A stretch of 64,000 nucleotides of DNA from an uncultured Christensenellaceae bacterium (lineage in GTDB: Bacteria; Bacillota; Clostridia; Christensenellales; UBA3700): NCBI GenBank assembly GCA_944383905.1, contig CALWRI010000001.1, forward strand, positions 23,766 to 87,765. The letters run 5' to 3'. Positions 7,708 to 29,978 of the stretch are shown here, piece by piece (positions within the stretch are counted from its first letter, which is position 1; each line of letters begins with the position of its first letter). Position numbers and translations under genes: made by a program. Below the pieces are notes generated by a model that saw nothing but the letters and a program-made list of their open reading frames with translations, was not told where the DNA came from and did no database searches.

Positions 7708-9882
7708 ATGCAGGATATTTGCGAAGACCTGCTCAAAGGTCTCAACGAAGAACAAAAAACCGCGGTCTCGTCGACCGAAGGCTACGTCCGCGTCGTCGCG
7801 GGCGCGGGAAGCGGAAAAACGCGAGTGCTTACCACCCGCTACGTCTATATTGCAAAAGTACTGGGCGTGGCTCCGTCGCGCATACTTTCGGTCACCTTTA
7901 CCAACAAGGCGGCGAAAGAGATGAAAAAACGCATCCTGCGCTATATGCCCGACGAGGACGGCGGCTGGATACTTACCTTTCACGGTGCCTGCAACAAAAT
8001 CCTCAAAGAGGAGATCCACCGCCTGCATTACCCGTCAAACTTCCTGATCATGGACGAGGAAGACCAGAAATCCCTGCTCAAAAAGATATACGAAGAAAAC
8101 GGATTGACGCTCAAGGACCACAACTTCAAAAGCTGTCTCGACGCGATCGGAGTATACAAAGGCAAAAACGGCTACGTCCCCTATTTCAGCGACCCGACGG
8201 GTCAGACCGCGGCGCCGGGACTGCCGCGCGCGGACGAAAAAGGCTCTCTTGATTTCATAACCAAAAAATACCTCGAGCTTCAACGCAAAAATTACTTTCT
8301 CGACTTTGACGATCTCGTGTTCTTCACTCTGCAGATATTCTACGACTTCGACGACGCGCGCGAAAAATGGCAAAGACAGTTCGAATATATTCAGGTTGAC
8401 GAGTTTCAGGACGTCTCAAAACCCGAATACACCCTCGTCGAAATGCTCTCTCTCCTCAACAAAAATATGTTCGTCGTCGGCGATCCCGATCAGACGATAT
8501 ACACCTGGAGAGGCGCGGACATCAGACTTTTTCTCGACTTCGACAAGGCGTTCGGCGGGGTAAAGACGATCGTCCTCGGCAAGAATTACCGCTCGACGCC
8601 CGAGATCCTCGCCGTCGGCAACTCCCTGATACGCCACAATACGCAGAGAATAAAAAAAGACCTCGTCGCAGTCAGAAAAAACGGGGTAAAAACGCGTTAC
8701 TTCCACGCGGCTACCCGTCAGCAGGAATGTGAATTCATCGCGGGCGAGATAACCGCGCTGCACGAAAAAGGCGTCCCGCTCGGCGACATCGCCGTACTCT
8801 ACCGCAGCAACTATATGTCCCGCTCCGTCGAAGACGCTTTCCTCAAATACGGCGTGCCCTACACCGTCTACAACGGGGTCGAATTTTACAAGAGAAAGGA
8901 GATAAAGGACGCGGTCGCATATCTGCGTATGTTCGTTTACAAGGACGATCTGTCTTTCTCGCGCATAGTCAACGTGCCCGCGCGGGGCATAGGCAAAAAG
9001 CGACTTGCCGCGATCTCCGCGCTCGCGCAGAACGAAAACCTGACGCTTTATCAGGCTTTCTCAAAGCTCGCCGACTCCGCGCTGTTCGCAGGTACGGGCG
9101 CAAAAAAACTGCTCAACGTCATAGAGGAAGGTTGCATCCGCGCGCAGGCGGCAGACGTCGACGTCTCCGACCTTCTCGACTTCGCTCTCAAAAAAAGCGG
9201 ATACGAAGAATATCTGATGTTGTGCGGGGATCAGAACAGGCTCGACAACGTCAACGAACTCAAAGCCGCGATAAAAGACTTTGTGGACGAAGCCGGCGAA
9301 CACGTCACTCCCGAAGAATATCTGAACGCAGTCGCGCTCATATCCAACTCCGACTCCGAGGACAAGGAACAGAGCGTGAAGCTGATGACCGTGCACACCG
9401 CAAAAGGGCTGGAATTTCCCTGCGTCTTCGTCTGCTCTCTCAACGAAGGACTGTTCCCGTCGCAGAAGATAGAAAACAAACAACAGATGGAAGAAGAAAG
9501 GAGAGTCGCTTACGTCGCGTTCACGAGAGCCAAAGACAGACTTTATCTGACCGACTCCGACGGGTTCGACTTGCAGACGAAAGGTCGTCTGATGCCCTCC
9601 CGTTTCATCTTCAACATCGACGAATCCCTGATCGACAAAAGCGGAGTGATGACCGACGAGTATCTGCACGCGGCGCTCGAATACATACGCGCGAGCGAAT
9701 ACGCTCTGAATCATCCGTCCGTGCCCGACTTCCGCACCTATCTCGGCGGAGACAGGGTGCGCCATCCCGTGTTCGGAGACGGTACGGTAACGGGCAGACA
9801 AAGCGGTTGCTACGTCGTGAAATTCGACAACGGCAACGTCCGCACCATATCCGAAGGAAGCGGCGTACTCAAACCTATCTGA
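7708..9882 (+). CDS. pcrA: ATP-dependent DNA helicase PcrA/UvrD family
   Basis: Walker A AGAGSGKT. UvrD/Rep motifs (TFTNKAAKEM, VDEFQD, GDPDQTIY, NYRS, VHTAKGLEF). Confidence 0.92.
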   Translation: MQDICEDLLKGLNEEQKTAVSSTEGYVRVVAGAGSGKTRVLTTRYVYIAKVLGVAPSRILSVTFTNKAAKEMKKRILRYMPDEDGGWILTFHGACNKILKEEIHRLHYPSNFLIMDEEDQKSLLKKIYEENGLTLKDHNFKSCLDAIGVYKGKNGYVPYFSDPTGQTAAPGLPRADEKGSLDFITKKYLELQRKNYFLDFDDLVFFTLQIFYDFDDAREKWQRQFEYIQVDEFQDVSKPEYTLVEMLSLLNKNMFVVGDPDQTIYTWRGADIRLFLDFDKAFGGVKTIVLGKNYRSTPEILAVGNSLIRHNTQRIKKDLVAVRKNGVKTRYFHAATRQQECEFIAGEITALHEKGVPLGDIAVLYRSNYMSRSVEDAFLKYGVPYTVYNGVEFYKRKEIKDAVAYLRMFVYKDDLSFSRIVNVPARGIGKKRLAAISALAQNENLTLYQAFSKLADSALFAGTGAKKLLNVIEEGCIRAQAADVDVSDLLDFALKKSGYEEYLMLCGDQNRLDNVNELKAAIKDFVDEAGEHVTPEEYLNAVALISNSDSEDKEQSVKLMTVHTAKGLEFPCVFVCSLNEGLFPSQKIENKQQMEEERRVAYVAFTRAKDRLYLTDSDGFDLQTKGRLMPSRFIFNIDESLIDKSGVMTDEYLHAALEYIRASEYALNHPSVPDFRTYLGGDRVRHPVFGDGTVTGRQSGCYVVKFDNGNVRTISEGSGVLKPI

Positions 9883-9940
9883 CGTTTTATCTACACGGGC
9901 AGGAAAATTTTGCAAACGCTATTGTCTGACGACAAAAAAA

Positions 9941-9969
9941 GAAAAGGCGCCGTTAAGACGCCTTTTTTT
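9941..9969. terminator. Probable bidirectional terminator between pcrA and dapL
   Basis: Short GC stem GGCG..CGCC with an A-run upstream and TTTTTTT downstream. The stem is weak (4-5 bp). Confidence 0.5.
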
Positions 9970-10011: not shown

Positions 10012-11199
10012 TTATTCCGAAAGAAGCTCTACCAGCTTTTTTGCCGCCGTCTCGGTATCCTCGGGACTGCCGAAAGTGGAGAATCTGAAATATCCTTCGC
10101 CGCACGAGCCGAAGCCTTCGCCGGGAGTGCCGACTATCTGCGCCTTTTCGAGAAGGAAATCGAAGAACTCCCAGCTGCTCATGCCTTTGGGACATTGCAT
10201 CCAGACATAAGGAGCGTTTTTGCCGCCGCAATACCATATCCCGAGCTTGTCGAGCGCGTCGGTGAGGTATTTCGCGTTGCGCTTGTAAACGGCGATATTC
10301 GCCTTTATCTGCCTTTGACCTTCTTCGGTAAAGACTGCCGCGGCGCCCTTCTGAAGAATGTAAGAAACGCCGTTCGTCTTCGTCGTGCGGTTTCTGACCC
10401 ACATCGCGTTGAGGTTCATCCCCTCTCTTTCAAGCTCTTTGGGTATCACCGTGTAGCCGCAGCGCGTGCCCGTGAAACCCGCCGTCTTGGACAGCGAACA
10501 TATCTCGATCGCGCACGTTCTCGCGCCTTCTATCTCGAAGATGCTGTGCGGGAGACCGTCGTCCTCGATAAACGCTTCGTATGCTGCGTCGAAGAGTATC
10601 ACCGCGCCTTTCTCGTTGGCGAAGTCCACCCATTTTTTGAGCTTTTCCCTGGTAAAGACCGCTCCCGTCGGGTTGTTGGGAGAACAGATATAAAAAAGGC
10701 TCGCCCTGATATTCTCGTCGGGTACGGGCAAAAATCCGTCCTCTCTGCCCGAAGCGAGATGCTGTATTTTCCTGCCCGCCATCACGTTGGCGTCGACGTA
10801 TGCGGGATATGCCGGCTCTATCACGAGCGCGTCGGACGACTTGTCGAAAAGGTCGAGAATGTCGCCCAGCTCGTCGCTGGCACCGCTTGAAACAAAGACC
10901 TCGTCAACGTCGATTTCTACACCCCTGTGTTGATAATAGCCTGCAACCGCGCTCTTGAAAAAGTGCGCGCCGCACTCCGGCATATAGCCGTGGAAGGTCT
11001 CCTTTTTCGCCTGATCGTCGACCGCTTCGTGAAGCGCCTTTATGACTTCGTCGCAAAGCGGAAGAGATACGTCGCCTATGCCGAGACGGTAGAGTTTTGC
11101 CCCGTCGTGACTTTCGACGTAAGCCCTCGTCTTTTGAGCTATCCTGTAAAAAAGATAGGAATCCTTGAGTTGCGAATAGTTGTGATTGGGCGTCAACAT
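10012..11199 (-). CDS. dapL: LL-diaminopimelate aminotransferase
   Basis: Class I aminotransferase with the DapL-type N-terminus (NYSQLKDSYLF) and the SLSKTAGFTG PLP-lysine motif. Adjacent to dapF. Confidence 0.85.
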   Translation of the reverse strand: MLTPNHNYSQLKDSYLFYRIAQKTRAYVESHDGAKLYRLGIGDVSLPLCDEVIKALHEAVDDQAKKETFHGYMPECGAHFFKSAVAGYYQHRGVEIDVDEVFVSSGASDELGDILDLFDKSSDALVIEPAYPAYVDANVMAGRKIQHLASGREDGFLPVPDENIRASLFYICSPNNPTGAVFTREKLKKWVDFANEKGAVILFDAAYEAFIEDDGLPHSIFEIEGARTCAIEICSLSKTAGFTGTRCGYTVIPKELEREGMNLNAMWVRNRTTKTNGVSYILQKGAAAVFTEEGQRQIKANIAVYKRNAKYLTDALDKLGIWYCGGKNAPYVWMQCPKGMSSWEFFDFLLEKAQIVGTPGEGFGSCGEGYFRFSTFGSPEDTETAAKKLVELLSE

Positions 11200-11975
11200 T
11201 TTATCTCTCCTTCAAAGACGGTGCGCGCGGGGCCCGTCATTGTCACTCTGCCGTTTTCCTCTCTTATGCGGAGCACTCCTCCGTCGAGAGTCACGTCGAC
11301 ATCCGCGCCGCCGTCGCAAAGTCCTTTCTTTATCGCCGCGGCGACGCTCGCGCACGTTCCCGTGCCGCACGCCATGGTTATGCCGCTGCCTCTCTCCCAG
11401 ACGCGCATACGCAGTCTGTTGTCGCCCGTCACGCTGACGAATTCGACGTTTACGCCGCCCGGGAAGCGTCTGTGCTTTTCGATCATAGGTCCGACCGTAT
11501 CGACGGGAGCCTTGTCCGCGTCGTCGACGAAGATCACCGCGTGCGGATTGCCGACGTCTACGGGTATGAATTTTATGCCGCCCGCAACGTCGAGGGTCTC
11601 CTCTTCTCCGACCCTGACCTCGCCCATATCCACCGCGACGCTGTCGACCTCTCCGTCCCTGACGTTGAGGCGGAGACGTCTGACGCCCGAAAGCGTCTCC
11701 ACGTCGAGCTCCGTCTTTTTGGTATATCCTTTGTCATAGACGAATTTGCCCACGCAGCGTATTCCGTTGCCGCACATCTTCGCCTCGCTTCCGTCCGCGT
11801 TGAAAATGCGCATTCTGAAATCCGCGACGTCGGAAAGGCTTATCAGAACGAGCCCGTCCCCGCCTATACCGAAATGGCGGTCGGACAGCTTTACGCTCAA
11901 AGCCTCGGGGTCCTTCGGCGCGCCGTACACATAGATATAGTCGTTGCCGAGCCCCTCCATTTTTGTGAATTTCAT
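11193..11975 (-). CDS. dapF: Diaminopimelate epimerase
   Basis: MKFTKMEGLGNDYIYV N-terminus. Catalytic Cys motifs (MCGNGIRC, ACGTGTCA). Confidence 0.93.
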   Translation of the reverse strand: MKFTKMEGLGNDYIYVYGAPKDPEALSVKLSDRHFGIGGDGLVLISLSDVADFRMRIFNADGSEAKMCGNGIRCVGKFVYDKGYTKKTELDVETLSGVRRLRLNVRDGEVDSVAVDMGEVRVGEEETLDVAGGIKFIPVDVGNPHAVIFVDDADKAPVDTVGPMIEKHRRFPGGVNVEFVSVTGDNRLRMRVWERGSGITMACGTGTCASVAAAIKKGLCDGGADVDVTLDGGVLRIREENGRVTMTGPARTVFEGEIKC

Positions 11976-11983
11976 ATTTTCTC

Positions 11984-14900
11984 CTATTTTGCGTCTATCG
12001 TGGATACGTTGAGCGTGATCTCCTCAAGCACGTCGAGGAGCGCCCTGACCGTATCGAGCGCGGTGAGCACGGTGACGTTGTTCTCTATCGCGCATTGTCT
12101 TATCGCGGAGCCGTCGCTTATCCTGTTTTCGCTGCTCACGTCGCGGGTGTTTATGACATAAGTCACATAACCCTGTCGTATCGAGTCGAGTATGTCGGTC
12201 GATCCGTCGCTGATCTTCTTCATCACGCGCGTCTTGATCCCATGACCTTTGAGGAACTTCGCGGTGCCCTCCGTCGCCTCGATATTAAAGCCGAGGTTGT
12301 AGAACCTGCGTATCAACGGGAGCGCCTCTTCCTTGTCGTCGTCGGCTATGGTTGCGAGCACCGTGCCGTAATTCTGCACCTTGACGCCAGAAGCCTGCAA
12401 CGCCTTGTAAAGCGCGCGGGTCAGGCTCTTGTCGTAACCTATCGCCTCGCCCGTCGATTTCATCTCGGGAGACAGATATGAATCCATACCGCGCAGTTTG
12501 GAGAACGAGAACGCAGGCGCCTTGGCGTAACAGCGCTTCTTTTCCTCCGGGTACACGCAGTTTATGCCCTGTTCTTTGAGACTCTTGCCGAGTATCGCGA
12601 GAGTCGCTATGTCCGCGAGATCGTATCCCGTCGCTTTGGACAGGAAAGGCACCGTACGCGAAGAACGCGGATTGACCTCTATGATAAAGACGTTTTCGTC
12701 CTTGTCCACGATGAATTGGATGTTGTAAAGTCCGATTATGCCTATGCCTCTGCCCAGCTTCTGCGTATAGTCGAGAATGACGTCCTTGACCTTTTGCGAG
12801 ATCGAGAACGAGGGGTAGACGCTTATCGAGTCGCCGGAGTGCACGCCCGTGCGTTCGACGAGCTCCATTATGCCGGGCACGAACACGTCCTTGCCGTCGC
12901 ATACCGCGTCGACTTCGACCTCCTTGCCCTTGATGTATTTGTCGACGAGCACGGGTTTGTCCTCGTCTATTTCGACTGCGGTCTTGAGATAGTGGCGCAG
13001 CTGTTCTTCGCCCGCGACTATTCTCATCGCTCTGCCGCCGAGCACGAAGCTGGGACGGACGAGCACGGGATAGCCTATCTCTTCCGCCGCCCTGATGCCG
13101 TCTTCAATCTTTGTGACTGCTCTGCCCTTCGGCTGCGGGATATTGAGCTCGACGAGCAATTTTTCAAACGCGTCGCGGTTTTCCGCCTTTTCTATCGCGT
13201 CGCGGTCCGTACCGATTATTTTGACGCCGCGCTCGTAAAGAGGCTCCGCGAGGTTGATCGCCGTCTGACCTCCGAGAGACGCGATCACGCCTATCGGCTT
13301 TTCAAGCTCTATCACGTTCATGACGTCCTCGACGCAGAGAGGCTCGAAGTACAGCTTGTCCGACGTAGTGTAGTCGGTGGAAACCGTCTCGGGGTTGTTA
13401 TTTATGATTATTGCCTCAAATCCCGCCTTTTTAATCGTCTTTACCGCGTGAACGGTGGAATAGTCGAATTCCACGCCCTGTCCTATACGGATGGGTCCGC
13501 TGCCGAGCACGACGACTTTCTTCTTGTCCGAAACGACGGATTCGTTCTCCTGTTCGTAAGTGGAATAGAAATAAGGAATATAGCTTTCGAATTCCGACGC
13601 GCAGCTGTCTATCATCTTGTAGACGGGACGTATGCCGTTTTGCTCGCGCACCTTTCTGACCTCGGCTTCGCTCGTGCCGGCATACTTTGCGACCGACTTG
13701 TCGGAGAAACCGAATTTTTTCGCTTCGAGGACGGCTTTTGCAGTCGCGCCCGTCTTTGCGAGAGATCTTTCTATTTCGACGATATGCCTGATCTTGTGCA
13801 GGAAGAAGTCGTCGATCGCGGTGACCGCGTTGATCTCCTCCTCCGTCGCGTCGAGACGGAATAGCTGCGCGATCGCGTATATCCTGTCGTCCGTGCCTAT
13901 TCTGACGTAATCGAGAAGGGCTTGTTTGTCCATATCGTCAAACTTCGCCATATAGACGTGATTGACGCCCGTTTCGAGCGAACGCACCGCTTTGAGCAGA
14001 CTCTCCTCAAAAGTCCTGCCGACGCTCATGACCTCGCCCGTTGCCTTCATCTGCGTGCCCAGCTTGTTGTTGGCGTCCGCGAATTTGTCAAACGGGAAAC
14101 GCGGCATCTTGCTGACGACGTAGTCGAGAGAAGGCTCGAAAGAAGCGGGGGTGTTGGCAAGCATGATCTCGTCGAGGTTCATGCCCACGCCTATCTTTGC
14201 CGAGACGCGCGCTATAGGGTAGCCGCTCGCCTTGGAAGCAAGCGCGGAAGAACGCGAAACTCTGGGATTAACTTCTATCAGATAGTATTGGAAGGACTTG
14301 GGATCAAGCGCGAACTGCACGTTGCAACCGCCCTTGATCTCAAGCGCGCGGATTATCTTGAGCGCGCTGTCGCGGAGCATATGATATTCCCTGTTGGTCA
14401 ATGTCTGCGACGGGCAGACAACGATCGAGTCTCCCGTGTGTATGCCGACGGGGTCGAGGTTTTCCATATTGCATATCGTGATAGCTGTGTCGTTGGCGTC
14501 GCGCATGACCTCGTACTCTATCTCCTTGAAGCCCTTTATGCTCTTTTCGACGAGCACCTGGTGAGTCGGAGAAAGCGCAAGCGCGTTTTTGATTATCTCG
14601 AGGAACTCCTCCTCGTTATCCGCAAAACCGCCGCCCGTTCCTCCGAGAGTAAACGCGGGGCGAAGCACGACGGGATAACCTATCTTCTCGACCGCCGCGA
14701 GTCCTTCTTCTATCGAATTGGCGATCTCGGACGGCAATACGGGTTCCCCGAGAGACTGACACAGCTCTTTGAACAGCTCCCTGTCTTCCGCCCTCTCGAT
14801 GCTCTTGCTGTTCGTGCCGAGAAGCTCGACGCGGCACTCTCTCAATATTCCCTTTTTCTCAAGCTGCATCGCGAGGTTGAGTCCCGTCTGTCCGCCTATG

Positions 14901-15158
14901 CCGGGGATTATCGCGTCGGGGCGCTCGTAACGTATTATCTTGGCGATATATTCGAGAGTGAGCGGCTCCATGTATACCTTGTCCGCGATCGAGGTGTCCG
15001 TCATTATGGTCGCGGGATTGGAGTTGCAAAGCACGACTTCGTAGCCCTCTTCCTTGAGCGCGAGACACGCCTGCGTGCCCGCATAATCGAATTCCGCCGC
15101 CTGTCCTATGACGATGGGTCCGGATCCTATGACGAGTATTTTCTTCAGGTCGGTTCTT

Positions 15159-15166
<8 letters not shown>
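11984..15166 (-). CDS. carB: Carbamoyl-phosphate synthase large subunit
   Basis: 1060 aa with duplicated ATP-grasp halves and an MGS-like C-terminal domain. Canonical N-terminus [23 protein letters not shown]. Confidence 0.97.
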
Positions 15167-19415
<4,249 letters not shown>

Positions 19416-19447
19416 ATATATGCCTCTCAAATATATTTTTTACGGTA

Positions 19448-21025
19448 TCATTTCCCGCTGTCGCCGTAGTTGGAAAGCACTCTCGCCGAAGGATCGGACA
19501 CTTCGCAGCCTTTCCAGCTCCTGTTTGGCATCCAGAAGTCCTTTATCATCTCCGCCTGACCGGGATAATATTTTTCGAACAACTCTCTGTACAGCAGGGA
19601 TTCTTTGGTGAACGGGCGCGCGTGCGTGTACCGCGCGCGTCTTTCTTCATATTCTTTATCCGAATAATACCCGTTTGCGTATTCCTTCAGATAGTCGACC
19701 ATCGAGTGCCCGACCGCGTCGGAAAACGCCGCTTTTTCTCTCATCAGTATATCCCGCGGCAACAGCCCGTCGTCTTCGAAAGCCTTGCGGAGCAGGTATT
19801 TGCCCTTGCCGTAGACGTTCATCTTTATCGCGGGATCGAGACTCATCACATACTCGACGAAATCGAGATCGCCGAACGGCACCCTCGCTTCGAGCGAGTT
19901 GACGGATATGCACCTGTCCGCGCGCAGCACGTCGTACATATAAAGCTCCCCGACCCTCTTTTGCGCTTCCTTCTGAAACTCGTCCGCACTCGGCGCAAAG
20001 TCGGTATATTTGTAGCCGAACAGCTCGTCCGAGATCTCTCCCGTGAGTATGACCCTGACGTCCGTCTTCTCGTGTATCGCCTTGCAGACGAGATACATGC
20101 CTATGCTCGCGCGTATCGTGGTTATGTCGTAGGTGCCCAGCACCTTTACCACCGTTTCGAGAGCGTTGAGCACGGTGTCTCTGTCGATTATCACTTCGGT
20201 GTGCTCGCTGCAGATATAGTCCGCGACTTCGCGGGCGTAACGCAGATCTATCGCGTCGCCGCTCATGCCTATCGAAAAGGTCTTTATCTTTCCCAGCTTC
20301 CTTGCGGCAACCGCGCATACGAGCGACGAGTCGAGTCCTCCGCTCAGGAGAAAGCCCACCTTTGCGTCGGATACGAGCCTCTTTTCTATGCCCGCTATCA
20401 GTTTTTCTCTGATCTTCGGGCAAGCGGCGGACGCGTCGTCCGGAGAGACCTTCGCGACCTTCGTCATGTCTCTGTACGAAACGAACTTTTCCCCGTCGTA
20501 ATAGTGACCGGGCGGAAACGGCATTATCCTGTCCGTAAGCCCGACAAGGTTTATCGCCTCGCTTGCGAACATTATCGCGCCGGACGGGTCGTAACCGTAA
20601 AACAACGGTCTTATCCCGATCGGATCGCGCGCCGCGACGAATCTGTCCCTTTCGGAATCGTATATCACGCAGGCAAATTCCGCGTCCAGCATAGCGAACA
20701 TATCCGTTCCGTGCTCCCTGAAGAGAGGCAGGAGCACCTCACAGTCCGAATCGCTCGCGAAAGCGTATCTGCCTTCGAGTTCCTTTCTGAACTTGTCGAA
20801 CCCGTATATCTCGCCGTTGCAGACGACGTAGTCTCCGCCGAGAAAAAAGGGTTGCATCCCTTCGGGCGTAAGTCCCATTATCGCAAGTCTGTGAAAACCC
20901 ATCAGTCCCGCGCCCGTATCGACTATCCTGCTGTCGTCGGGACCTCTCGACGTCGTGCGCGAAAATCCTTCTTCAAACTTGTCGCGCGGCGCGTCTTTGC
21001 GGCAATATGCCATTATCGAACACAT
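19448..21025 (-). CDS. asnB: Asparagine synthase (glutamine-hydrolysing)
   Basis: N-terminal Cys2 (class II amidotransferase). SGGLDSS PP-loop motif. 15 nt downstream of glnN. Confidence 0.9.
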   Translation of the reverse strand: MCSIMAYCRKDAPRDKFEEGFSRTTSRGPDDSRIVDTGAGLMGFHRLAIMGLTPEGMQPFFLGGDYVVCNGEIYGFDKFRKELEGRYAFASDSDCEVLLPLFREHGTDMFAMLDAEFACVIYDSERDRFVAARDPIGIRPLFYGYDPSGAIMFASEAINLVGLTDRIMPFPPGHYYDGEKFVSYRDMTKVAKVSPDDASAACPKIREKLIAGIEKRLVSDAKVGFLLSGGLDSSLVCAVAARKLGKIKTFSIGMSGDAIDLRYAREVADYICSEHTEVIIDRDTVLNALETVVKVLGTYDITTIRASIGMYLVCKAIHEKTDVRVILTGEISDELFGYKYTDFAPSADEFQKEAQKRVGELYMYDVLRADRCISVNSLEARVPFGDLDFVEYVMSLDPAIKMNVYGKGKYLLRKAFEDDGLLPRDILMREKAAFSDAVGHSMVDYLKEYANGYYSDKEYEERRARYTHARPFTKESLLYRELFEKYYPGQAEMIKDFWMPNRSWKGCEVSDPSARVLSNYGDSGK

Positions 21026-21040
21026 AACTTCTCCCCCTTT

Positions 21041-23134
21041 TTACCTGACTCCGAAGAGCAATTCTCCGTAGGTCGGGAACGGCCAGTATTCCGTTGCCAT
21101 CTTCGTCTCCGCTTCGTCTGCGACTGCGCGGAGCGCGCTCATGCAGGGGAGGATCCTGTCCCTGATATAGTTCGCCTCGGATATTATATCACAAAAATCC
21201 TTGACGTGAACGACGGCTTCTTTAAGTTCCTCTGTAAACGCCGCCGTCCTGTCTACCAATACAGACAGCTTTTTCACAATCCCGTGTTCGTAATCGCAAC
21301 TTATGTCGGGCGACAAATTTTTCTTTGAAATTGCCGTTTCACAAATTTTGCAAACGTATTTTTCCACCGCAGGAACGATCTGTTTCTCCGCCATGTCAAC
21401 CATCGTCTCCGCTTCGATCAGTACCGCCTTGCAGTAGTTGTCCAGCATGATGTCGCATCTCGACCTGAGCTCCGACTCCGAATATACGCCCTGCGAAACG
21501 AGCATCTTCACGTTCTTTTCGTCGAGCAGATGCGGCATACAGTCGGGGGTGGTGCGGTAGTTGGAAAGCCCTCTTCTCTCCGCCTCTTTTATCCACGCTT
21601 CGTCATAGCCGTTGCCGTTGAAGATTATTCTCTTGTGATCCTTGATCGTCTTTTTGATCATAAGGTGAAGCGCGGTGTTGAAGTCCTCGACTCCTTCAAG
21701 CCTGTCGGCATACTGTTTGAGTGATTCCGCAACCGCCGCGTTGAGCATGATGTTTGCGCACGCTATGCTGTTGGAAGAACCCAGCATCCTGAACTCGAAC
21801 TTGTTGCCTGTGAACGCAAACGGAGAAGTCCTGTTCCTGTCCGTAGTGTCCTTGGGGAACAGAGGCAAAACGTCAACGCCCAGCTTGAGCTGCGTCTTCT
21901 TTTTTCCGCTGTACGGCTTGTCGTTTTCGATAGCTTCGAGCACCGCGGTGAGCTCGTCTCCGAGGAATACGGAGAGCACTGCGGGCGGCGCTTCGTTTGC
22001 GCCGAGTCTGTGGTCGTTGCCTGCCGTCGCGACCGCGATGCGCAGCAGATCCTGGTAGTCGTCCACCGCTTTGAGCACCGCGCAGAGGAAAAGCAGGAAC
22101 TGCGCGTTTTCATAAGGCGTTTCGCCCGGAGTCAGCAGGTTTACCCCTTTGTCCGTAGCCATCGACCAGTTGTTGTGCTTGCCGCTTCCGTTCACGCCCG
22201 CGAAAGGCTTTTCGTGAAGCAGACAAACGAGACCGTGGCGCGACGCGACCTTTTGCATGATCTCCATGGTCAGCTGGTTGTGGTCCGTCGCTATATTCGT
22301 CGTCGAATATATCGGCGCAAGCTCGTGCTGCGCGGGAGCGACTTCGTTGTGTTCCGTCTTTGCGAGCACGCCCAGCTTCCACAACTCCTCGTTGAGATCA
22401 GCCATATATTCCTCTACCCTCGGCTTTATCACGCCGAAATAGTGATCGTCCAGCTCCTGTCCCTTGGGCGCCTTTGCTCCGAAAAGCGTGCGTCCCGTAT
22501 ATATCAGATCCTTGCGTTTGTCGTAAAGCGCCTTGTCTATAAGGAAGTATTCCTGTTCCGGACCCACGGACGTGCGCACGCACTTGACGTTCGTGTTGCC
22601 GAACAGTCTGAGTATTCTCATCGCCTGTCTGTTGAGCGCTTCCATCGAGCGCAGAAGCGGGGTCTTCTTGTCGAGCGCCTCGCCACCGTAAGAGCAGAAC
22701 GCCGTGGGTATGCAAAGCGTCTTGCCCTTTATAAACGCGAACGAAGTCGGATCCCACGCGGTGTAGCCTCTCGCCTCGAACGTCGCGCGCAGACCGCCCG
22801 AAGGGAAGCTCGAAGCATCCGGCTCGCCCTTTATCAGTTCTTTGCCCGAAAACTCCATGATGACTCTGCCGTCGGGAGCGGGAGTGATGAAGCTGTCATG
22901 CTTCTCCGCGGTTATGCCTGTCAGAGGCTGAAACCAATGGGTGTAATGCGTCGCGCCGTGAGCGATCGCCCAGTCCTTCATGGCACCCGCGACCGCGTTG
23001 GCGACGGATATGTCGAGGGAAGCTCCCCTGTCTATCGTCTTTTTGAGAGACCTGTACACGTCGGCGGAGAGCGTCGCTCTCATGACCCTGTCGTCAAAGA
23101 CCATACTGCCGAAATAGTCGGATACCGTTTGCAT
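21041..23134 (-). CDS. glnN: Glutamine synthetase type III
   Basis: About 700 aa, GS-III length with a conserved N-terminus ([14 protein letters not shown]). Start set at the ATG at 23134, preceded by AAGGAG. Confidence 0.9.
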
Positions 23135-23155
23135 AATTTTTATCTCCTTTTTATT

Positions 23156-23202
23156 AAAAAAGGGCAATGGCGCCTATGTTTTTACCATAGACGCCATTGC
23201 CC
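23156..23202 (-). terminator. Leader attenuator (intrinsic terminator) in the glnN 5' UTR
   Basis: Minus strand: GGGCAAUGGCGUCUAUG-guaaaaa-CAUAGGCGCCAUUGCCC followed by UUUUUU, between the promoter and the RBS. Confidence 0.8.
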
Positions 23203-23221
23203 GATTTGATTTATGTTTTGG

Positions 23222-23250
23222 ATTATACAAAACCCGTAAAGGTTTGTCAA
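23222..23250 (-). promoter_or_regulatory. Consensus sigma-A promoter of the glnN operon
   Basis: Minus strand: TTGACA (23250..23245), 17-nt spacer, TATAAT (23227..23222). Confidence 0.8.
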
Positions 23251-23318
23251 CGGATTTAAGCAAATTCACAAAAAAATTTTTTTGTCCGTTTTCTGCCCTT
23301 TTTTTTGGTAATTTTATG

Positions 23319-23348
23319 TTGACTAATTCTTTTTTTGCGTGCTATAAT
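23319..23348 (+). promoter_or_regulatory. Sigma-A promoter of the split-GOGAT/glnA/ANTAR operon
   Basis: TTGACT (23319..23324), 18-nt spacer, TATAAT (23343..23348). Confidence 0.75.
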
Positions 23349-23358
23349 CTGTCAAACG

Positions 23359-23417
23359 GGCAAAGGCGTTCGTTTTTGAGGATAATTGTCCTTAAAAACG
23401 CGCCTTTGCCTTTTTTT
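23359..23417 (+). terminator. Leader attenuator (intrinsic terminator) in the GOGAT operon 5' UTR
   Basis: About 22-bp hairpin GGCAAAGGCG-uu-CGUUUUUGAGGA-uaauug-UCCUUAAAAACG-CGCCUUUGCC followed by UUUUUUU. It starts about 10 nt after the -10 box and ends 24 nt before the ATG. Confidence 0.8.
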
Positions 23418-23440
23418 ATACCGAAAGAGAGGTTTTTATT

Positions 23441-24529
23441 ATGATCAGAAAAGAAGGTCAGGTCAGGATCCCGTCGGGCTGCGCGGTCTCCGCGGTCATT
23501 TCCCGCGAAAAGAATTTGATGAGCGGAGAAAAAATCGTCGCGAGCATGGTGCCTATGCACGAGCGCTCCAACGGACTCGGCGGCGGCTTTGCCGCTTACG
23601 GCATCTACCCCGATATGGCGGAGTTTTACGCCTTTCATATGTTTTTCGACGACAGAGAAAGTCAGAAAGAATGCGAAGCATATCTCAAAGAGGGCTTCGA
23701 GATCGTCAGAGCGGAACCCATACCCGTGCGCAAGATCCCCGCTATCACGGACGAACCCATAATATTCAGATACTTTCTTTCTCCTTTGCGCTCGCGCATA
23801 GCGGACGCGCAGGTGGACGAAAGAGAATTCGTAGCGCGTGCGACGATGCATATCAACGTCTTCATAAAAGGCGCGTACGTCGTGTCGGGAGGCAAGAACA
23901 CGGGCGTATTCAAGGCGGTCGGCTTCCCCGAAGACGTGGGAGAATTTTACCGCCTCGACGAATATTCGGCATACTGCTGGACAGCGCACGGCAGATACCC
24001 GACCAATACTCCCGGCTGGTGGGGCGGCGCGCACCCCTTCGGACTGCTCGACTACACGGTCGTGCACAACGGTGAGATCTCCTCTTACGACGCTAACCGC
24101 AGAAACGTCGAAGCGTACGGCTACAAATGCACCCTTCAGACGGACACCGAGGTGTTCACCTACATCGCGGACTATCTTCTCCGCCGCAAAAAACTTACGC
24201 TCGAGGAGACGGCAAACGTGATCGCGGCGCCGTTCTGGAGCACGATCGAAAGCAAGCCCGCAGAAGAACGCGAAAGACTGACTTATCTGCGCAACGTGTT
24301 TTCGGGATTCCTCGTGACGGGGCCATTTTCTATAATACTCGGCTTCGAAGGCGGACTCATGGCGCTCAACGACCGTCTCAAGCTCCGCTCCATGGTCGTA
24401 GCCGAAAAGGACGACAAGGTCTTTATCGCGAGCGAAGAAGCTGCAATACGAGTGCTTGAACCGGACGCCGTCAACGTGCGGGCGCCCGAAGGCGGCGAAC
24501 CCGTCATAGTCAGAGTAAAGGAGGACTGA
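23441..24529 (+). CDS. Glutamate synthase, class II glutamine amidotransferase subunit (archaeal-type split GltB, domain 1)
   Basis: N-terminal PSGC motif. Ntn-amidotransferase signature HGRYPTNT..HNGEI. Confidence 0.8.
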   Translation: MIRKEGQVRIPSGCAVSAVISREKNLMSGEKIVASMVPMHERSNGLGGGFAAYGIYPDMAEFYAFHMFFDDRESQKECEAYLKEGFEIVRAEPIPVRKIPAITDEPIIFRYFLSPLRSRIADAQVDEREFVARATMHINVFIKGAYVVSGGKNTGVFKAVGFPEDVGEFYRLDEYSAYCWTAHGRYPTNTPGWWGGAHPFGLLDYTVVHNGEISSYDANRRNVEAYGYKCTLQTDTEVFTYIADYLLRRKKLTLEETANVIAAPFWSTIESKPAEERERLTYLRNVFSGFLVTGPFSIILGFEGGLMALNDRLKLRSMVVAEKDDKVFIASEEAAIRVLEPDAVNVRAPEGGEPVIVRVKED

Positions 24530-24534
24530 CCGCT

Positions 24535-26037
24535 ATGTGGAAAAACTATATATATCCGACTTACGAAGTCGTCAGAAATCAGAACAGATGCACTGACTGC
24601 GGACTGTGCGCCCGCGAATGTTCTTACGGCGTGCACTACCGTTCCGACAAAGGCGTGCTGCTTGCGGACGACTCGAAATGCGTCAACTGCCAGCGCTGCG
24701 TCGCCACTTGTCCGACCCACGCGCTCAAGATCGTGAAAAGCAACTGCGATTTCAGAGAAAACGCGAATTGGAGCGGAGACGCCATTAAAGAGATCATGAA
24801 ACAGGCGGCAAGCGGCGGCGTGTTGCTCTCGTCCATGGGCAATCCCCAACCCTATCCCGTCTATTGGGACAAACTTCTGATAAACGCTTCGCAGGTCACA
24901 AACCCGCCCATAGATCCTCTCCGCGAGCCGATGGAAACGCGCGTGTTCCTCGGCAAGAAACCTTCCGAAATAGCGCGGGACGAACACGGGCGCTTGATTT
25001 GTGATCTTCCTCCCCTTCTCACCGCGGAACTTCCCATACTCTTTTCGGCAATGAGTTACGGCTCGATAAGTTACAACGCCCACTCCGCACTGGCTAACGC
25101 GGCGACGAGGCTCGGGACGTTTTACAATACGGGCGAAGGCGGACTGCACGAAAACTTTTACCGTTACGGCGCCAACACGATAGTTCAGGTCGCTTCGGGC
25201 AGATTCGGCGTGCACAAGGACTACCTCGAAGCGGGCGCGGCGATAGAGATAAAGATGGGTCAGGGCGCGAAACCGGGCATCGGCGGACACCTGCCCGGCT
25301 CCAAAATAGTAGGCGACGTCTCGCGCACGAGAATGATTCCCGAAGGCTCGGACGCTATCTCCCCCGCACCTCATCACGACATCTATTCGATCGAAGATCT
25401 GCGGCAGCTCGTATTCTCTCTGAAAGAGGCGACGGAATACAAAAAGCCCGTCATCGTCAAGATCGCCGCCGTGCACAATATCGCCGCAATAGCCAGCGGT
25501 ATCGCGAGAAGCGGCGCCGACATAATCGCCATCGACGGTTTCAGAGGCGGCACCGGCGCGGCTCCGACGAGGATAAGAGACAACGTGGGCATACCCGTCG
25601 AACTCGCTCTCGCCGCCGTGGATACCAGGCTGCGCGAAGAAGGCATACGCAACGACGTCTCACTCGTCGTCGGCGGCAGTATCCGCAATTCTACCGACGT
25701 CGTAAAGGCGATCGCGCTTGGCGCGGACGCGTGCTATATCGCGACAGCCGCTCTGATAGCCATGGGCTGTCACCTCTGCCGCAACTGCCAGAGCGGAAAA
25801 TGCAACTGGGGTATCGCCACGCAGAAGCCCGAACTCGTCAAACGCCTCAATCCCGACGAAGCCGCGGACAGACTCATCAATCTGCTTACCGCGTGGAAAC
25901 ACGAGATCATGGAGATCATGGGCGGTATGGGCATAAATTCGATCGAAGCGCTCAAAGGCAACAGGCTGATGCTCCGCGGCATAGGTCTTACGCAAAAAGA
26001 GCTCTCCATACTCGGAGTCGCGCACGCGGGAGAATGA
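24535..26037 (+). CDS. Glutamate synthase FMN-binding subunit with N-terminal 2x[4Fe-4S] ferredoxin domain (split GltB, domain 2)
   Basis: Two CxxCxxCxxxCP motifs. GltS FMN-domain motifs (NTGEGG, KMGQGAKPGIGGHLPG). Confidence 0.85.
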   Translation: MWKNYIYPTYEVVRNQNRCTDCGLCARECSYGVHYRSDKGVLLADDSKCVNCQRCVATCPTHALKIVKSNCDFRENANWSGDAIKEIMKQAASGGVLLSSMGNPQPYPVYWDKLLINASQVTNPPIDPLREPMETRVFLGKKPSEIARDEHGRLICDLPPLLTAELPILFSAMSYGSISYNAHSALANAATRLGTFYNTGEGGLHENFYRYGANTIVQVASGRFGVHKDYLEAGAAIEIKMGQGAKPGIGGHLPGSKIVGDVSRTRMIPEGSDAISPAPHHDIYSIEDLRQLVFSLKEATEYKKPVIVKIAAVHNIAAIASGIARSGADIIAIDGFRGGTGAAPTRIRDNVGIPVELALAAVDTRLREEGIRNDVSLVVGGSIRNSTDVVKAIALGADACYIATAALIAMGCHLCRNCQSGKCNWGIATQKPELVKRLNPDEAADRLINLLTAWKHEIMEIMGGMGINSIEALKGNRLMLRGIGLTQKELSILGVAHAGE

Positions 26038-26083
26038 TTCTGCGACTTCAATATCATAGTCAAATCAAAGGAGGTATGTTATA

Positions 26084-26806
26084 ATGATAATACTGAATGC
26101 GCGCGCGACGGACAACGCGGCGCTCAACGAAAGCGTGAGAGCGGCGAAAGACGGCTGTGAAATAATCGGCTGTATAGGCGAAAGATTTATCGGCGCGGGA
26201 CTTTCGGACAGAACGATAAGCATAAAAGGAATTCCCGGCAACGCGCTCGGCGCCTACCTCAACGGCGCGAAGATAATCGTGGACGGCAACGCACAGGACG
26301 CGGTCGGCGACACGATGAACGCGGGCGAGATCGTCGTGCGTGGCAATACCGGCGACGCGGCGGGATACGCGATGCGCGGCGGCAAGATATACGTCAGAGG
26401 CAACGCGGGTTACCGCACGGGCATACACATGAAGGAGTACGGCTCCCGCTTCCCCGTCATCGTGATCGGGGGCAGGTGCGGCAGTTTCCTCGGAGAATAC
26501 CAGGCGGGCGGACTGATAGTCGTGCTCGGTCTGCACGACGACGGCAAACGCATAGTCGGCAACTTCCCCTGCGCGGGTATGCACGGGGGCAAGGTCCTCC
26601 TGCGAGGCAACGCGGACGGCGTCGTCTTCCCCGACAAGGTCACCGCGAGACCCGCAACGGCGGAAGATATGGCTCCCGCGACCGGTTATATCAACGAATT
26701 CTGCGCCGCATTCGGCATAGACGAAAACGAGGTGCTCCGCTCCCCGTTCACCGTCGTGACCCCCGACAGCGCAAACCCTTACAAAAGGATGTATGTAGAA
26801 AACTAA
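26084..26806 (+). CDS. Glutamate synthase GXGXG-repeat subunit (split GltB, C-terminal domain)
   Basis: Repeated beta-helix GXGXG motifs (VRGNTGDAAGYAMRGGKIYVRGNAGYRTG). Confidence 0.8.
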   Translation: MIILNARATDNAALNESVRAAKDGCEIIGCIGERFIGAGLSDRTISIKGIPGNALGAYLNGAKIIVDGNAQDAVGDTMNAGEIVVRGNTGDAAGYAMRGGKIYVRGNAGYRTGIHMKEYGSRFPVIVIGGRCGSFLGEYQAGGLIVVLGLHDDGKRIVGNFPCAGMHGGKVLLRGNADGVVFPDKVTARPATAEDMAPATGYINEFCAAFGIDENEVLRSPFTVVTPDSANPYKRMYVEN

Positions 26807-26819
26807 CAGAGGTGATACC

Positions 26820-28034
26820 ATGAAATACACGGCAAACGAAGTCTTGCAGTACGTCAGAGAAGAAGACGTCAAATTCGTACGTCTCGCGTTCTGCGACGTC
26901 TTCGGCGTTCAGAAAAACATCTCCGTAATGCCGTCCGAGCTCGGGCGCGCGTTCAAAACGGGGATAGCCATCGACGCTTCCGCGATAGCGGGATTCGGCG
27001 ACGTCGCGCACAGCGATCTCTTTCTGCATCCCGACCCGTCCACTCTTTCCGTCCTTCCGTGGAGACCGGAGCACGGCAAGGTGGTCAGAATGTTCTGCTC
27101 GGTGCTCTGCCCCGACGGGACTCCGTTCGTCAACGACGCGCGCGGAATACTGATAAAGGCGATCGAACGTGCGAAACAGGCGGGATATTCTTTCAACTTC
27201 GGCGCCGAAATGGAGTTTTATCTGTTCAGACTCGACGAAAACGGCTTGCCGACGAAGATACCTTACGACAACGCCGGATATATGGACGTGGCGCCTCTCG
27301 ACCGCGGCGAAAACATACGCAGAGAGATATGCCTCACCCTCGAGCAGATGGGCATCCTGCCAGAAAGCTCGCACCACGAAGAAGGCCCCGGACAAAACGA
27401 GATCGACTTCAGATATTCGGACGCCCTGACCGCCGCGGACAATGCGGTGACCTTCCGTTCCGTGGTCAGCACGATAGCCGCGAGAAACGGACTCTGGGCG
27501 GACTTCGGGGCAAAGCCCCTCGCGGACGCGCCCGGCAACGGACTGCATATCAACGTATCCGTCGCGGGAGGAGATCACGACGAGCTCATTCCGAAGGTGA
27601 TCGCCGGTATCCTCGACAAGGTGCGCGACGTCACTCTGTTCCTCAATCCGACAGAAGAATCCTACGCGCGACTCGGCAACAACAAGGCTCCGCGCTATCT
27701 AACATGGTCGAGGCAAAACCGCTCCCAACTCATAAGGATCCCGGCGGCGGTCGGAGAATACAGGCGTGCCGAGCTGCGCTCTCCTGACGCGGCGGCGAAC
27801 CCCTATCTCGCATTCGCCCTGCTCATTTATGCGGGACTTCACGGGATAGAAAACGGCTTGCCTCTGCCCGAACCCGCAGACGTCAACCTCTACACCGCCG
27901 AAAAATCGGTGCTTGACAAATACGCGACGCTGCCTTCTTCTCTCAAAGAGGCGGTCGACGTCGCAAAGGACAGCGCTTTCGTAAAAGCCTGTCTGCCGCA
28001 TGAGATCGTGCAGGCGTACTGCCGACTTGCCTGA
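26820..28034 (+). CDS. glnA: Glutamine synthetase, type I-like (short form, 404 aa)
   Basis: GS beta-grasp N-domain (VKFVRLAFCDVFG) and catalytic-domain motifs (EMEFYLF, HHEEGPGQNEIDF, NGLHINVS). Confidence 0.85.
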   Translation: MKYTANEVLQYVREEDVKFVRLAFCDVFGVQKNISVMPSELGRAFKTGIAIDASAIAGFGDVAHSDLFLHPDPSTLSVLPWRPEHGKVVRMFCSVLCPDGTPFVNDARGILIKAIERAKQAGYSFNFGAEMEFYLFRLDENGLPTKIPYDNAGYMDVAPLDRGENIRREICLTLEQMGILPESSHHEEGPGQNEIDFRYSDALTAADNAVTFRSVVSTIAARNGLWADFGAKPLADAPGNGLHINVSVAGGDHDELIPKVIAGILDKVRDVTLFLNPTEESYARLGNNKAPRYLTWSRQNRSQLIRIPAAVGEYRRAELRSPDAAANPYLAFALLIYAGLHGIENGLPLPEPADVNLYTAEKSVLDKYATLPSSLKEAVDVAKDSAFVKACLPHEIVQAYCRLA

Positions 28035-28055
28035 CAAACCGCATCGGAGGAGCAA

Positions 28056-28657: not shown

Positions 28658-28689
28658 CCCGCCCTTTTCCGGGCGGGTTTTCTTTTTTC
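28658..28689 (+). terminator. Intrinsic terminator ending the GOGAT-glnA-ANTAR operon
   Basis: CCCGCCC-uuuucc-GGGCGGG followed by UUUUCUUUUUU. Confidence 0.85.
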
Positions 28690-29608: not shown

Positions 29609-29922
29609 ACGTACTCGAAGTCGTATGGAAAATAGCTCTGATGGCGGCGCTGACCTATCTTTGCAGAGTCGTGACGCTCGTACTCGTCCGCAAAAAGATA
29701 ACCAACGTCCGCGTGCTGTCGTTTTTTGAATATCTGCCGTACGGGGTGCTCTCGGCAATGGTGTTCCCCGCCGTGTTCTACTCGTCCGCAAGCGTCGTAT
29801 CGGCAATCGTCGGCACCGTTGTCGCGGCAGTCCTCTCGTTTTTCCGCAGAGGGCTTCTGACCGTGTCTCTCTCGGCTACCGCGGCGGTATTTGTGACGGA
29901 GCTTATCATGAGCGCGGTCTGA
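29605..29922 (+). CDS. azlD: AzlD-family branched-chain amino acid transport protein
   Basis: 105-aa, 4-TM protein immediately after azlC. LTYLCRVV motif. Confidence 0.75.
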   Translation: MNVLEVVWKIALMAALTYLCRVVTLVLVRKKITNVRVLSFFEYLPYGVLSAMVFPAVFYSSASVVSAIVGTVVAAVLSFFRRGLLTVSLSATAAVFVTELIMSAV

Positions 29923-29946: not shown

Positions 29947-29978
29947 CGACGGACCCTTTCGGATCCGTCTTCTTTTTT
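29947..29978. terminator. Bidirectional terminator between azlD and the YegP-like gene
   Basis: ACGGACC-cuuuc-GGAUCCGU flanked by AAAAAA and UUCUUUUUU. Confidence 0.7.

Follow-up and report, generated by a model that had tools for sequence, protein, structure and literature searches.

In Bacillus, feedback-inhibited glutamine synthetase (GS) signals to TnrA/GlnR, and the short leader of pyrG contains a terminator. Control is divided by pathway in Bacillus subtilis, with glnRA/TnrA for nitrogen assimilation, reiterative transcription that senses cytidine triphosphate (CTP) for pyrG, PyrR for the pyr operon, and separate control of the pur and gua genes. A clostridial arrangement of another kind is that of NitR, an ANTAR protein of Clostridium saccharobutylicum, which antiterminates GS and glutamate synthase (GOGAT) genes (glnA-nitR/gltAB) on nitrogen limitation (Stutz et al. 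2007, as summarised in PMC6316151). Ramesh et al. (2012) formulated the A1/G4 hexaloop rule for ANTAR-target RNAs, located these RNAs mostly at nitrogen genes, and tabulated among them genes for GS (some with an adjacent ANTAR gene), asparagine synthase and ammonium transporters, with examples in Desulfotomaculum acetoxidans and in GS/ANTAR pairs such as Amet_3386/3385 (PMC3369931). In the structure of EutV with RNA, the ANTAR dimer touches one hexaloop at a time, and the minimal site was redefined as a single hexaloop; the role of single-hexaloop sites was left open in that paper (PMC8934654). Outside the Firmicutes, Prevotella ruminicola 23 has a cluster of amtB, glnK, asnB, glnN-2, gltBD, dapF, an aminotransferase and an amidotransferase that is induced 27- to 69-fold by ammonium limitation; its pyrG is also ammonium-responsive, and it expresses an NH4+-dependent diaminopimelate dehydrogenase in different conditions (PMC5552732). 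Here we report on a 64,000-nucleotide (nt) stretch (64 kilobases, kb) of the genome of an uncultured Christensenellaceae bacterium (contig CALWRI010000001.1), referred to throughout as the window, in which eight minus-strand genes, glnN, asnB, guaA, pyrG, carA, carB, dapF and dapL, form a 13-kb array (10012..23134).

Our reading of this array, held with reasonable rather than strong confidence, is that its eight genes make up a single operon regulated by nitrogen through ANTAR-type antitermination, in which one hexaloop site takes the place of the classical dual one. Its anatomy matches ANTAR antitermination in four respects: a hairpin whose hexaloop carries A1 and G4, a terminator that overlaps it, nitrogen genes downstream, and a neighbouring ANTAR gene. 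The features of the array, from promoter to end terminator, are as follows (RBS, ribosome-binding site; bp, base pairs; GMP, guanosine monophosphate).

23222..23250, minus strand: sigma-A-type promoter of the array, TTGACA-17-TATAAT (12/12 consensus match).
23189..23202, minus strand: mini-hairpin P1, GGGC[AAUGGC]GUCU, situated close to the transcript 5' end, its hexaloop of ANTAR type (A1, G4; covariance model R1, 21.1 bits).
23156..23202, minus strand: leader intrinsic terminator with a 17-bp stem, 7-nt loop and U6 (hairpin 23202..23162 followed by T6), with P1 inside its 5' arm (consensus scan).
21041..23134, minus strand: glnN, type III GS (GSIII; Pfam GSIII_N, Gln-synt_C, Gln-synt_C-ter; RBS AGGAG at 23148..23144).
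19448..21025, minus strand: asnB, glutamine-hydrolysing asparagine synthase (NF006949, 592 bits against a cut-off of 499).
17886..19415, minus strand: guaA, glutamine-hydrolysing GMP synthase (NF000848, 777 bits against 400).
16250..17866, minus strand: pyrG, CTP synthase (NF003792, 837 bits against 308).
15159..16253, minus strand: carA, carbamoyl-phosphate synthase small (glutaminase) subunit (TIGR01368, 469 bits against 307).
11984..15166, minus strand: carB, carbamoyl-phosphate synthase large subunit (NF003671, 1499 bits against 599).
11193..11975, minus strand: dapF, diaminopimelate (DAP) epimerase (TIGR00652, 286 bits against 115).
10012..11199, minus strand: dapL, glutamate-dependent LL-DAP aminotransferase (TIGR03542, 472 bits against 365).
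9934..9966, minus strand: intrinsic terminator after dapL, hairpin 9966..9942 (-19.7 kcal/mol, z -5.2).

All eight open reading frames (ORFs) lay where the initial annotation had placed them on the minus strand, with family matches above curated cut-offs, and their identities bear out its theme of a glutamine producer accompanied by consumers of glutamine or glutamate nitrogen. GlnN has the N-terminal, catalytic and C-terminal domains (PF12437 at 268 bits, PF00120 and PF18318) and the length of about 700 amino acids (aa) expected of a type III GS, and it matched the GSIII structure of Bacteroides fragilis (3o6x) over its full length (residues 4-694, E 2.4e-196). The genes are as tightly packed as had been claimed, with junctions spanning exactly -8 to +32 nt: glnN-asnB +15, asnB-guaA +32, guaA-pyrG +19, pyrG-carA -4, carA-carB -8, carB-dapF +8 and dapF-dapL -7. 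These values take as the guaA start ATG 19415, which is preceded by the RBS GAGAGG; the longest ORF begins at TTG 19430, with which the gap before guaA is +17 nt. The start of carA is a TTG that overlaps the stop of pyrG (TTGA). By a rough estimate that assumes about 0.6% of genes to be glutamine amidotransferases, four of them among the seven genes that follow a GS would occur by chance with a probability of about 1e-7.

A minus-strand scan of 10012..23134 found no credible intrinsic terminator between the genes, its sole match being a 5-bp stem within dapL. The earlier claims that no hairpin plus U-tract separates the genes, and that the array has one leader terminator (23202..23156) and one end terminator (9966..9942), thus both stand. 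The latter lies between dapL and a convergent pcrA-like helicase gene (7708..9882, plus strand). From co-directional genes with short or overlapping junctions, no internal terminator and a terminator at the end, we infer that the eight genes are co-transcribed. Around the -10 hexamer of the glnN promoter is a 6-bp inverted repeat, GTTTTG..CAAAAC (23215..23233, minus strand), which could be a protein operator or chance.

A divergent operon of five genes (23441..28640, plus strand) starts 306 nt upstream of the array, and its front end is built like that of the array, with a promoter, a hairpin followed by U7, and then an RBS.

23319..23348, plus strand: promoter of the divergent operon, TTGACT-18-TATAAT with an extended-10 TG (11/12 consensus match).
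23355..23418, plus strand: second leader, with P1 AACGGGC[AAAGGC]GUUCGUU (23355..23374) inside a terminator (23358..23411) followed by U7 (R1, 24.8 bits).
23441..24529, 24535..26037 and 26084..26806, plus strand: three genes of a split glutamate-synthase-like enzyme, namely GATase_2, 4Fe-4S plus flavin mononucleotide (FMN) Glu_synthase, and GXGXG (domain searches).
26820..28034, plus strand: GSI-alpha-like GS homologue of 404 aa (Pfam Gln-synt_N, Gln-synt_C).
28056..28640, plus strand: ANTAR-domain protein of 194 aa with a pseudo-receiver, NitR/AmiR-like (PF03861, 53.7 bits against a cut-off of 27.3, E 1.8e-14).
28658..28687, plus strand: terminator closing the operon directly after the ANTAR gene.

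The second leader has a folding energy of -35.6 kcal/mol (z -8.35). The GS-like protein matched GS chains in the PDB (E 1e-104; residues 4-400 of the query against 8-419 of 446) and is without about the last 27 residues of the B. subtilis type of GS; it may serve as an enzyme, as a sensor or as both. The ANTAR protein, whose presence is itself expected of an ANTAR system, matched Rv1626 (1s8n) over its full length (E 9e-10) and also matched AmiR. Its phospho-acceptor aspartate is replaced by asparagine, as in 15 of the 19 family members from related loci, and it is therefore a pseudo-receiver protein. These loci come from one genome per species (GTDB) scanned with the PyrG of the window, which yielded 80 loci, each from a different assembly, at 68-81% identity; they belong mostly to uncultured gut or rumen Clostridia, with one Slackia and one Treponema metagenome-assembled genome (MAG), and their neighbourhoods were analysed by protein clustering and profile searches within ±10 kb of pyrG. 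On that span the ANTAR gene was seen in 19 of the 80 loci, and in 18 related loci it directly follows the GS-like gene. Judged by these features, the ANTAR protein is a candidate antiterminator for both leaders. With a pseudo-receiver, it probably takes its signal from a partner protein, as in AmiC/AmiR, and not from phosphorylation, and the pseudo-receiver together with the constant GS-like neighbour makes the GS-like protein a candidate sensor partner that would convey the glutamine state.

The leader of the array folds into its terminator with an energy of -33.8 kcal/mol (z -8.5), and P1 lies at its very beginning. Four copies of the decamer GGCAAWGGCG are present in the window (0.4 expected), forming both arms of the two leader hairpins; covariance model R1 likewise matched only two leaders in the 64 kb, one for each of the two divergent operons, and had no match with E<1 within 10012..23134. 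In relatives the decamer stands about 10 nt after TTGACA-17-TATAAT, the promoter geometry seen at the array, and makes the 5' arm of a hairpin followed by a U-tract; throughout the leader family P1 begins 5-12 nt after the -10 box of a TTGAC..TAnnnT promoter. Its conserved core is a 5-bp stem with the hexaloop AANGGN closed by C-G (AAWGGC in both window leaders), and A1, A2, G4, G5 and the closing pair are invariant across 42 leaders. The stem of these leaders was paired in 96% of cells (38-55% in slid registers), with 56 double-sided changes as compared to 19.6 in shuffles (reached in 0 of 500) and with compensated variants such as AAGGC/GUCUU, UGAGC/GUUCA, GAGAC/GUCUC and ACAGC/GCUGU, among others. 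Because this alignment had been chosen partly on pairing, the test was repeated on 41 sites picked only by promoter and loop, where the four outer stem positions were paired in 91% of cases as compared to 70% (maximum 80%) for shuffled partners. The loop and 3' strand of P1 are part of the terminator 5' arm in the window and in relatives, and P1 and the terminator are therefore mutually exclusive. In the 3' arm of the terminator G.U wobbles are frequent, and the two arms lie between 8 and more than 40 nt apart in different leaders, so the signal lies in the RNA and not in the DNA. Both window leaders have the A1/G4 hexaloop hairpin that marks an ANTAR-target RNA, and the exclusivity of hairpin and intrinsic terminator is likewise that of ANTAR systems.

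Two observations on related sequences belong here. In some relatives two hexaloop/terminator leaders stand in tandem before glnN (L004, 2306..2190, minus strand; L083, 425..545, plus strand; L121; L200), and read-through into glnN would there need two successive antitermination events. The dapL terminator (9942..9966, minus strand) includes AAAGGCGTCTT, the 3' half of the leader motif; its R1 score is only 9 bits, and we treated this resemblance as probably chance.

Several known controls were considered for the leader and set aside. Rfam 15 at gathering score found only a tRNA in the window, with no glutamine riboswitch, PyrR site or T-box, and at E<=10 the best match in the leader region was PyrR at 25 bits as compared to the 54 required, unrelated families having E>0.05. 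The GlnR/TnrA operator TGTNAN7TNACA, allowing at most one mismatch, was absent from 23135..23440 (7 in the window as compared to 11 expected), and membership in a GlnR/TnrA regulon was rejected on this account. A pyrG-type reiterative-transcription attenuator, conceivable from the GGGC at the hairpin base, was rejected because transcription is expected to start about 13 nt upstream of this GGGC and because the motif also occurs at genes other than pyrG.

In the relatives chosen by pyrG, the leader precedes glnN, pyrG, guaA, glmS, carA, purC, amtB-glnK and a gltB-like operon. An independent sample was obtained by scanning metagenomes with the 16-mer AAGGCAAWGGCGTCTT and not via pyrG. About 60% of its matches look like chance, as expected for a 16-mer, and the other 47 have an upstream promoter. 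At 42 of these 47 sites the first downstream ORF lies within 400 nt, and it encodes GlnN in 24, an AmtB-GlnK protein in four, PurC in three, nicotinamide adenine dinucleotide phosphate-dependent glutamate dehydrogenase (gdhA) in three, AsnB in two, a homologue of the glutamate symporter (gltS-like) in two, and DapL and PyrG in one each, along with two short ORFs (100 and 82 aa). Arrays were again present (glnN-asnB-purC-purB; purC-pyrG-purF-carAB; glnN-pyrG..carAB). Because the downstream genes in this motif-chosen sample are nitrogen genes, the leader motif is, on sequence evidence, a marker of a nitrogen-assimilation regulon. The initial annotation had called the leader a nitrogen-responsive attenuator; the conserved motif of a nitrogen regulon and the neighbouring ANTAR gene lend this reading support by inference.

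The theme of the array is widespread among the 80 PyrG loci. Defining a same-strand block by gaps of less than 400 nt, pyrG shares its block with at least one nitrogen gene in 66 loci, has a nitrogen gene within reach in 72, and lies in blocks of up to 12 genes. Individual adjacencies recur to different extents (carB-dapF in 13 loci, guaA-pyrG in 11, dapF-dapL in 8, pyrG-carA in 5, glnN-asnB in 4 and asnB-guaA in 1), and one locus, L018, has a superset of the array in the same order: glnN, amtB-glnK, asnB, guaA, pyrG, glmS, purF, carA, carB, dapF, dapL. Further recurrent members are purF (21 loci), purA (14), purB (13), glmS (8), nadE (6), the amtB-glnK fusion (6), purC (5) and gltD/gltB, and purD, purM, purH and pyrB are absent from the recurrent neighbours within ±10 kb. 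Collected in these blocks are the reactions that pass on nitrogen taken from glutamine, aspartate or glutamate; complete pathways are not. In L018 and L011 further copies of the leader inside the arrays divide them, in L018 for instance at the asnB-guaA junction; because of such copies, the design with a single attenuator is specific to the window genome. Since the long arrays of relatives carry internal leaders and the asnB-guaA gap of the window is only 32 nt, two nitrogen-regulated units appear to have been joined in the window genome into a single operon of 13 kb.

Some of these neighbourhoods deserve mention in their own right. The AmtB-GlnK protein of relatives is a fusion polypeptide of about 570 aa (L002, 1631..3346; L009, L018, L026, L031 and others), and its gene lies between glnN and asnB there; the window array is without it. 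Two divergent carAB lineages occur beside pyrG, with about 75-81% and about 50% identity to the CarB of the window (L026, L045, L057, L064-L068 and L071 versus L001, L002, L007, L018 and L078), and these may be arginine-type and pyrimidine-type paralogs. Outside the Firmicutes, Slackia piriformis (L061) has gltB-like genes divergent from glnN, pyrG and purF in that order, and the Treponema sp. MAG (L047) has gltB and gltD followed further on by pyrG and purF; both neighbourhoods may have arisen by horizontal transfer between gut anaerobes or by convergence.

Under the mechanism that we propose, transcription would start at the consensus promoter (23250..23222) and by default stop after about 60 nt at the leader terminator (23202..23156). 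The first 20 or so nt could alternatively fold into P1, with its hexaloop AAUGGC (A1, G4), and P1 would be transcribed first. Free ANTAR protein (28056..28640), which we infer to bind the leader P1, would hold this hairpin, sequestering the 5' arm of the terminator and blocking its base, and polymerase would then read glnN through dapL to the terminator at 9966..9942, with coupled translation favoured by the tight or overlapping junctions. Without the ANTAR hold, the -33.8 kcal/mol terminator would win, and would do so by default because P1 alone is worth only -2.5 kcal/mol. The GS-like protein may report the glutamine state to the ANTAR protein, by analogy with the action of feedback-inhibited GS on TnrA/GlnR, and the position of the ANTAR gene behind the same type of leader would add autoregulation, giving a self-reinforcing circuit. 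As to direction, scarcity of ammonia or glutamine would presumably raise GSIII together with the enzymes that compete for a small glutamine/glutamate pool in the synthesis of asparagine, GMP, CTP, carbamoyl phosphate and LL-DAP. By analogy, the expression of the NH4+-dependent dehydrogenase of P. ruminicola under other conditions suggests that dapF and dapL belong in the array as a glutamate-dependent, low-ammonia route to DAP.

Taken across relatives, the same evidence raises the possibility, which we advance tentatively, of a clade-wide "nitrogen-donor" regulon in Oscillospirales-like gut Clostridia and, by transfer or convergence, in other gut anaerobes, controlled by a new and minimal class of single-hexaloop ANTAR attenuators, a pseudo-receiver ANTAR protein and a signal from a GS-like partner. 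Virtually all steps of glutamine-amide, aspartate-amino and glutamate-amino transfer may in this clade have been pulled from their pathway operons and co-regulated with GS, GOGAT and AmtB; their targets may comprise nucleotides, nicotinamide adenine dinucleotide (NAD), amino sugars, asparagine, carbamoyl phosphate and DAP, and the 13-kb array of the window would be the most fused form of the regulon. Two features are unusual. An ANTAR/NitR-type regulon would, as predicted from the genes, reach the steps that bring nitrogen into nucleotides, carbamoyl phosphate, asparagine and DAP (in relatives, also NAD and amino sugars), and the leader has a single 5'-terminal hexaloop hairpin. The literature searched gave no description of the extended regulon or the single-hexaloop leader, no ANTAR control of pyrG, guaA or purF, and no match to the gene order; it also contained no description of the organisation of the array, in agreement with the initial annotation, which had not recognised it as a described operon.

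A number of observations weigh against reading the array as a single ANTAR-controlled operon. The P1 of the array is weak (4 bp, -2.5 kcal/mol). No second A1/G4 hexaloop was found in 50 apical loops, with the upstream region, the apical part and the 3' arm searched, and a second candidate hairpin was seen in 5 of 48 leaders, no more often than in the reversed control (6 of 48); with P1 beginning 5-12 nt past the -10 box, the upstream side offers no space for one. The canonical dual-hairpin ANTAR motif was accordingly rejected. EutV, for its part, needs two successive hexaloops and phosphorylation, in contrast to the one hexaloop, the pseudo-receiver and the nitrogen targets of the window (PMC8934654). 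The exact eight-gene order was present in no other species representative among the 80 PyrG loci; a unique order with no conservation had been named beforehand as a ground for doubt, and on this point the outcome favours the array at the level of theme, 66 of the loci keeping a nitrogen block. Transcript evidence consists of eight near-identical, short RNA contigs from one chicken-gut RNA library, none of which crosses a gene junction, and is too sparse to help. Finally, promoter-like sites occur inside the array, eight on the sense strand (9-10/12 consensus), for example at 21210..21183 (extended-10, before asnB), 19593..19565 (before guaA) and 16866..16837, and six on the other strand; in total the scan found 19 sites as compared to 7.3 ± 2.7 in shuffles. 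The essential downstream genes may thus have basal expression that is independent of the leader.

The sense-strand sites and the excess of the total over shuffles are also an argument for regarding the array as a gene cluster and not a single regulatory unit, an explanation that we consider unlikely but worth a serious hearing. The leader would then tune mainly glnN (perhaps also asnB), guaA, pyrG, carAB and dapFL would be constitutive via internal promoters, and co-location would reflect selection for co-inheritance or dosage rather than shared nitrogen control. Some bypass can indeed be argued to be likely when genes needed under all conditions stand behind a -33.8 kcal/mol terminator, and the sub-arrays of L018 and L011 have promoters of their own. 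However, those internal promoters do not look constitutive, for they carry the hexaloop/terminator leader, which puts the sub-arrays under the nitrogen motif as well. In the window itself the promoter-like sites are similarly frequent on both strands (six versus eight), as expected for noise, and junctions of -8 to +32 nt leave no space for intergenic promoters.

We think it improbable that the array is an auxiliary low-nitrogen module of redundant, condition-specific second copies, in an organism whose housekeeping guaA, pyrG and carAB, along with an ammonia-dependent DAP dehydrogenase route, are encoded at other sites. The view of the genome is limited to 64 kb, and two circumstances lend the idea some substance: the two carAB lineages beside pyrG in different relatives hint at paralogy in the clade, and P. 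ruminicola expresses its NH4+-dependent DAP dehydrogenase under conditions that differ from those of its dapF/aminotransferase cluster (PMC5552732). All proteins of the array nevertheless score far above their equivalog cut-offs, the 80 best PyrG loci come from 80 assemblies, so that no genome has a second close pyrG, and the window, which is core chromosome, holds no other pyr, pur or gua gene.

That the operon is real and its leader the target of something other than an ANTAR protein (another RNA-binding protein, a DNA repressor on GGCAAWGGCG at +1..+15, or a small-molecule riboswitch) seems to us decidedly improbable: the single hexaloop hairpin, the overlap of the motif with the transcription start region (a frequent location of operators), the want of an Rfam family match and the presence of the ANTAR gene in just 19 of 80 loci, though these span only ±10 kb, speak for it, but the stem covaries around an invariant loop, a hairpin of 16 nt offers too little room for a ligand pocket, 23135..23440 has no GlnR/TnrA box, and an A1/G4 hexaloop with an overlapping terminator, nitrogen genes and a neighbouring ANTAR gene is the ANTAR signature (PMC3369931; PMC8934654). 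A DNA-operator reading of the inverted repeat of the leader in particular is disfavoured by the covarying mini-hairpin, and a 3' arm paired through G.U wobbles at a spacing of 8 to more than 40 nt does not suit a dimeric operator.

A mobile element or assembly artefact was rejected on two grounds. The array stretch is flanked by core chromosome (genes for a pcrA-like helicase, glycoside hydrolases and ABC transporters, and the ribosomal-protein operons), and it recurs, with a word share of 0.74-0.97, in the 20 indexed runs that contain it; these come from at least nine studies and are mostly labelled chicken gut metagenome. The ribosomal-protein cluster at 46000..62000 (minus strand; L2, S3, L15, SecY, adenylate kinase, methionine aminopeptidase, S4, RpoA) has the orientation of the array and lies about 25 kb off, on which ground the array is assigned to the core chromosome and probably to the leading strand. 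The tRNA mentioned above, which alone reached the Rfam gathering score in the window, is 88 nt long and of the type with a long variable arm (995..1082, plus strand). Beyond the divergent operon, another perfect 12/12 promoter (30518..30490, minus strand) is followed by an ORF of 135 aa (30396..29989), which on visual impression we take to be a YegP/DUF1508-type tandem-repeat protein, and by a terminator (29969..29948). The plus-strand ORFs 28775..29608 and 29605..29922 are presumably, again by eye, membrane proteins and possibly an AzlC/AzlD-type pair.

Should the operon reading and its extension to the clade be true, the abundant Clostridia of gut and rumen would exert direct nitrogen control over the synthesis of nucleotides, NAD, amino sugars and cell-wall precursors, acting exactly at the steps of nitrogen transfer, a logic not seen in Bacillus or Escherichia coli. 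The array would also be a natural test case for single-hexaloop ANTAR sites as antiterminators, the question raised by the EutV-RNA structure. In practical terms, the signature of a promoter followed by AAGGC-AAWGGC-GUCUU and a terminator can be used to annotate nitrogen regulons in uncultured Firmicutes and aids the reading of metatranscriptomes from nitrogen-limited gut communities.

Compared with B. subtilis, the window shares the principle of a GS-centred nitrogen signal that controls assimilation genes. It differs in having no TGTNAN7TNACA box, in a PyrR score of 25 bits versus 54, and in collecting the genes in one array instead of pathway operons. Unlike the pyrG attenuators of Bacillus and Lactococcus, pyrG of the window has no leader of its own, following guaA after 19 nt, and where relatives do have a pyrG leader it is of the AAWGGC hexaloop type, not the CTP-sensing attenuator type. 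The likeness to P. ruminicola lies in the co-location of GSIII, asnB and DAP genes, and their induction at limiting ammonium in that organism is experimental support for the physiological logic of the array; the phylum, however, is a different one, regulation there is of another, non-ANTAR kind, and pyrG and the pur genes are scattered, with no guaA-pyrG-carAB block (PMC5552732). With EutV/EutW of the eut operon of Enterococcus faecalis the window leaders have in common the short stem, the A1/G4 hexaloop and exclusivity with the terminator (PMC8934654). They resemble the regulons of Ramesh et al. in placing A1/G4 hairpins over intrinsic terminators before genes for GS, asparagine synthase, ammonium transporter/PII and glutamate synthase, and differ in that those are dual-hairpin motifs of 45-56 nt, whereas the window has a single hairpin a few nt from the transcription start; the supplementary table of that study has no match before CTP synthase, GMP synthase, amidophosphoribosyltransferase (purF) or carbamoyl-phosphate synthase genes (PMC3369931). 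Set against the NitR system, as far as its summary in PMC6316151 describes it, the regulon of the window extends beyond GS/GOGAT (GSIII, asnB, guaA, pyrG, carAB and dapFL; in relatives purF, glmS, nadE and purABC), and its leader is a single 5'-terminal hexaloop hairpin. The resemblance is one of layout: both systems are clostridial, and the divergent operon of the window repeats the arrangement, given for NitR in that summary, of a GS gene followed directly by a small ANTAR gene.

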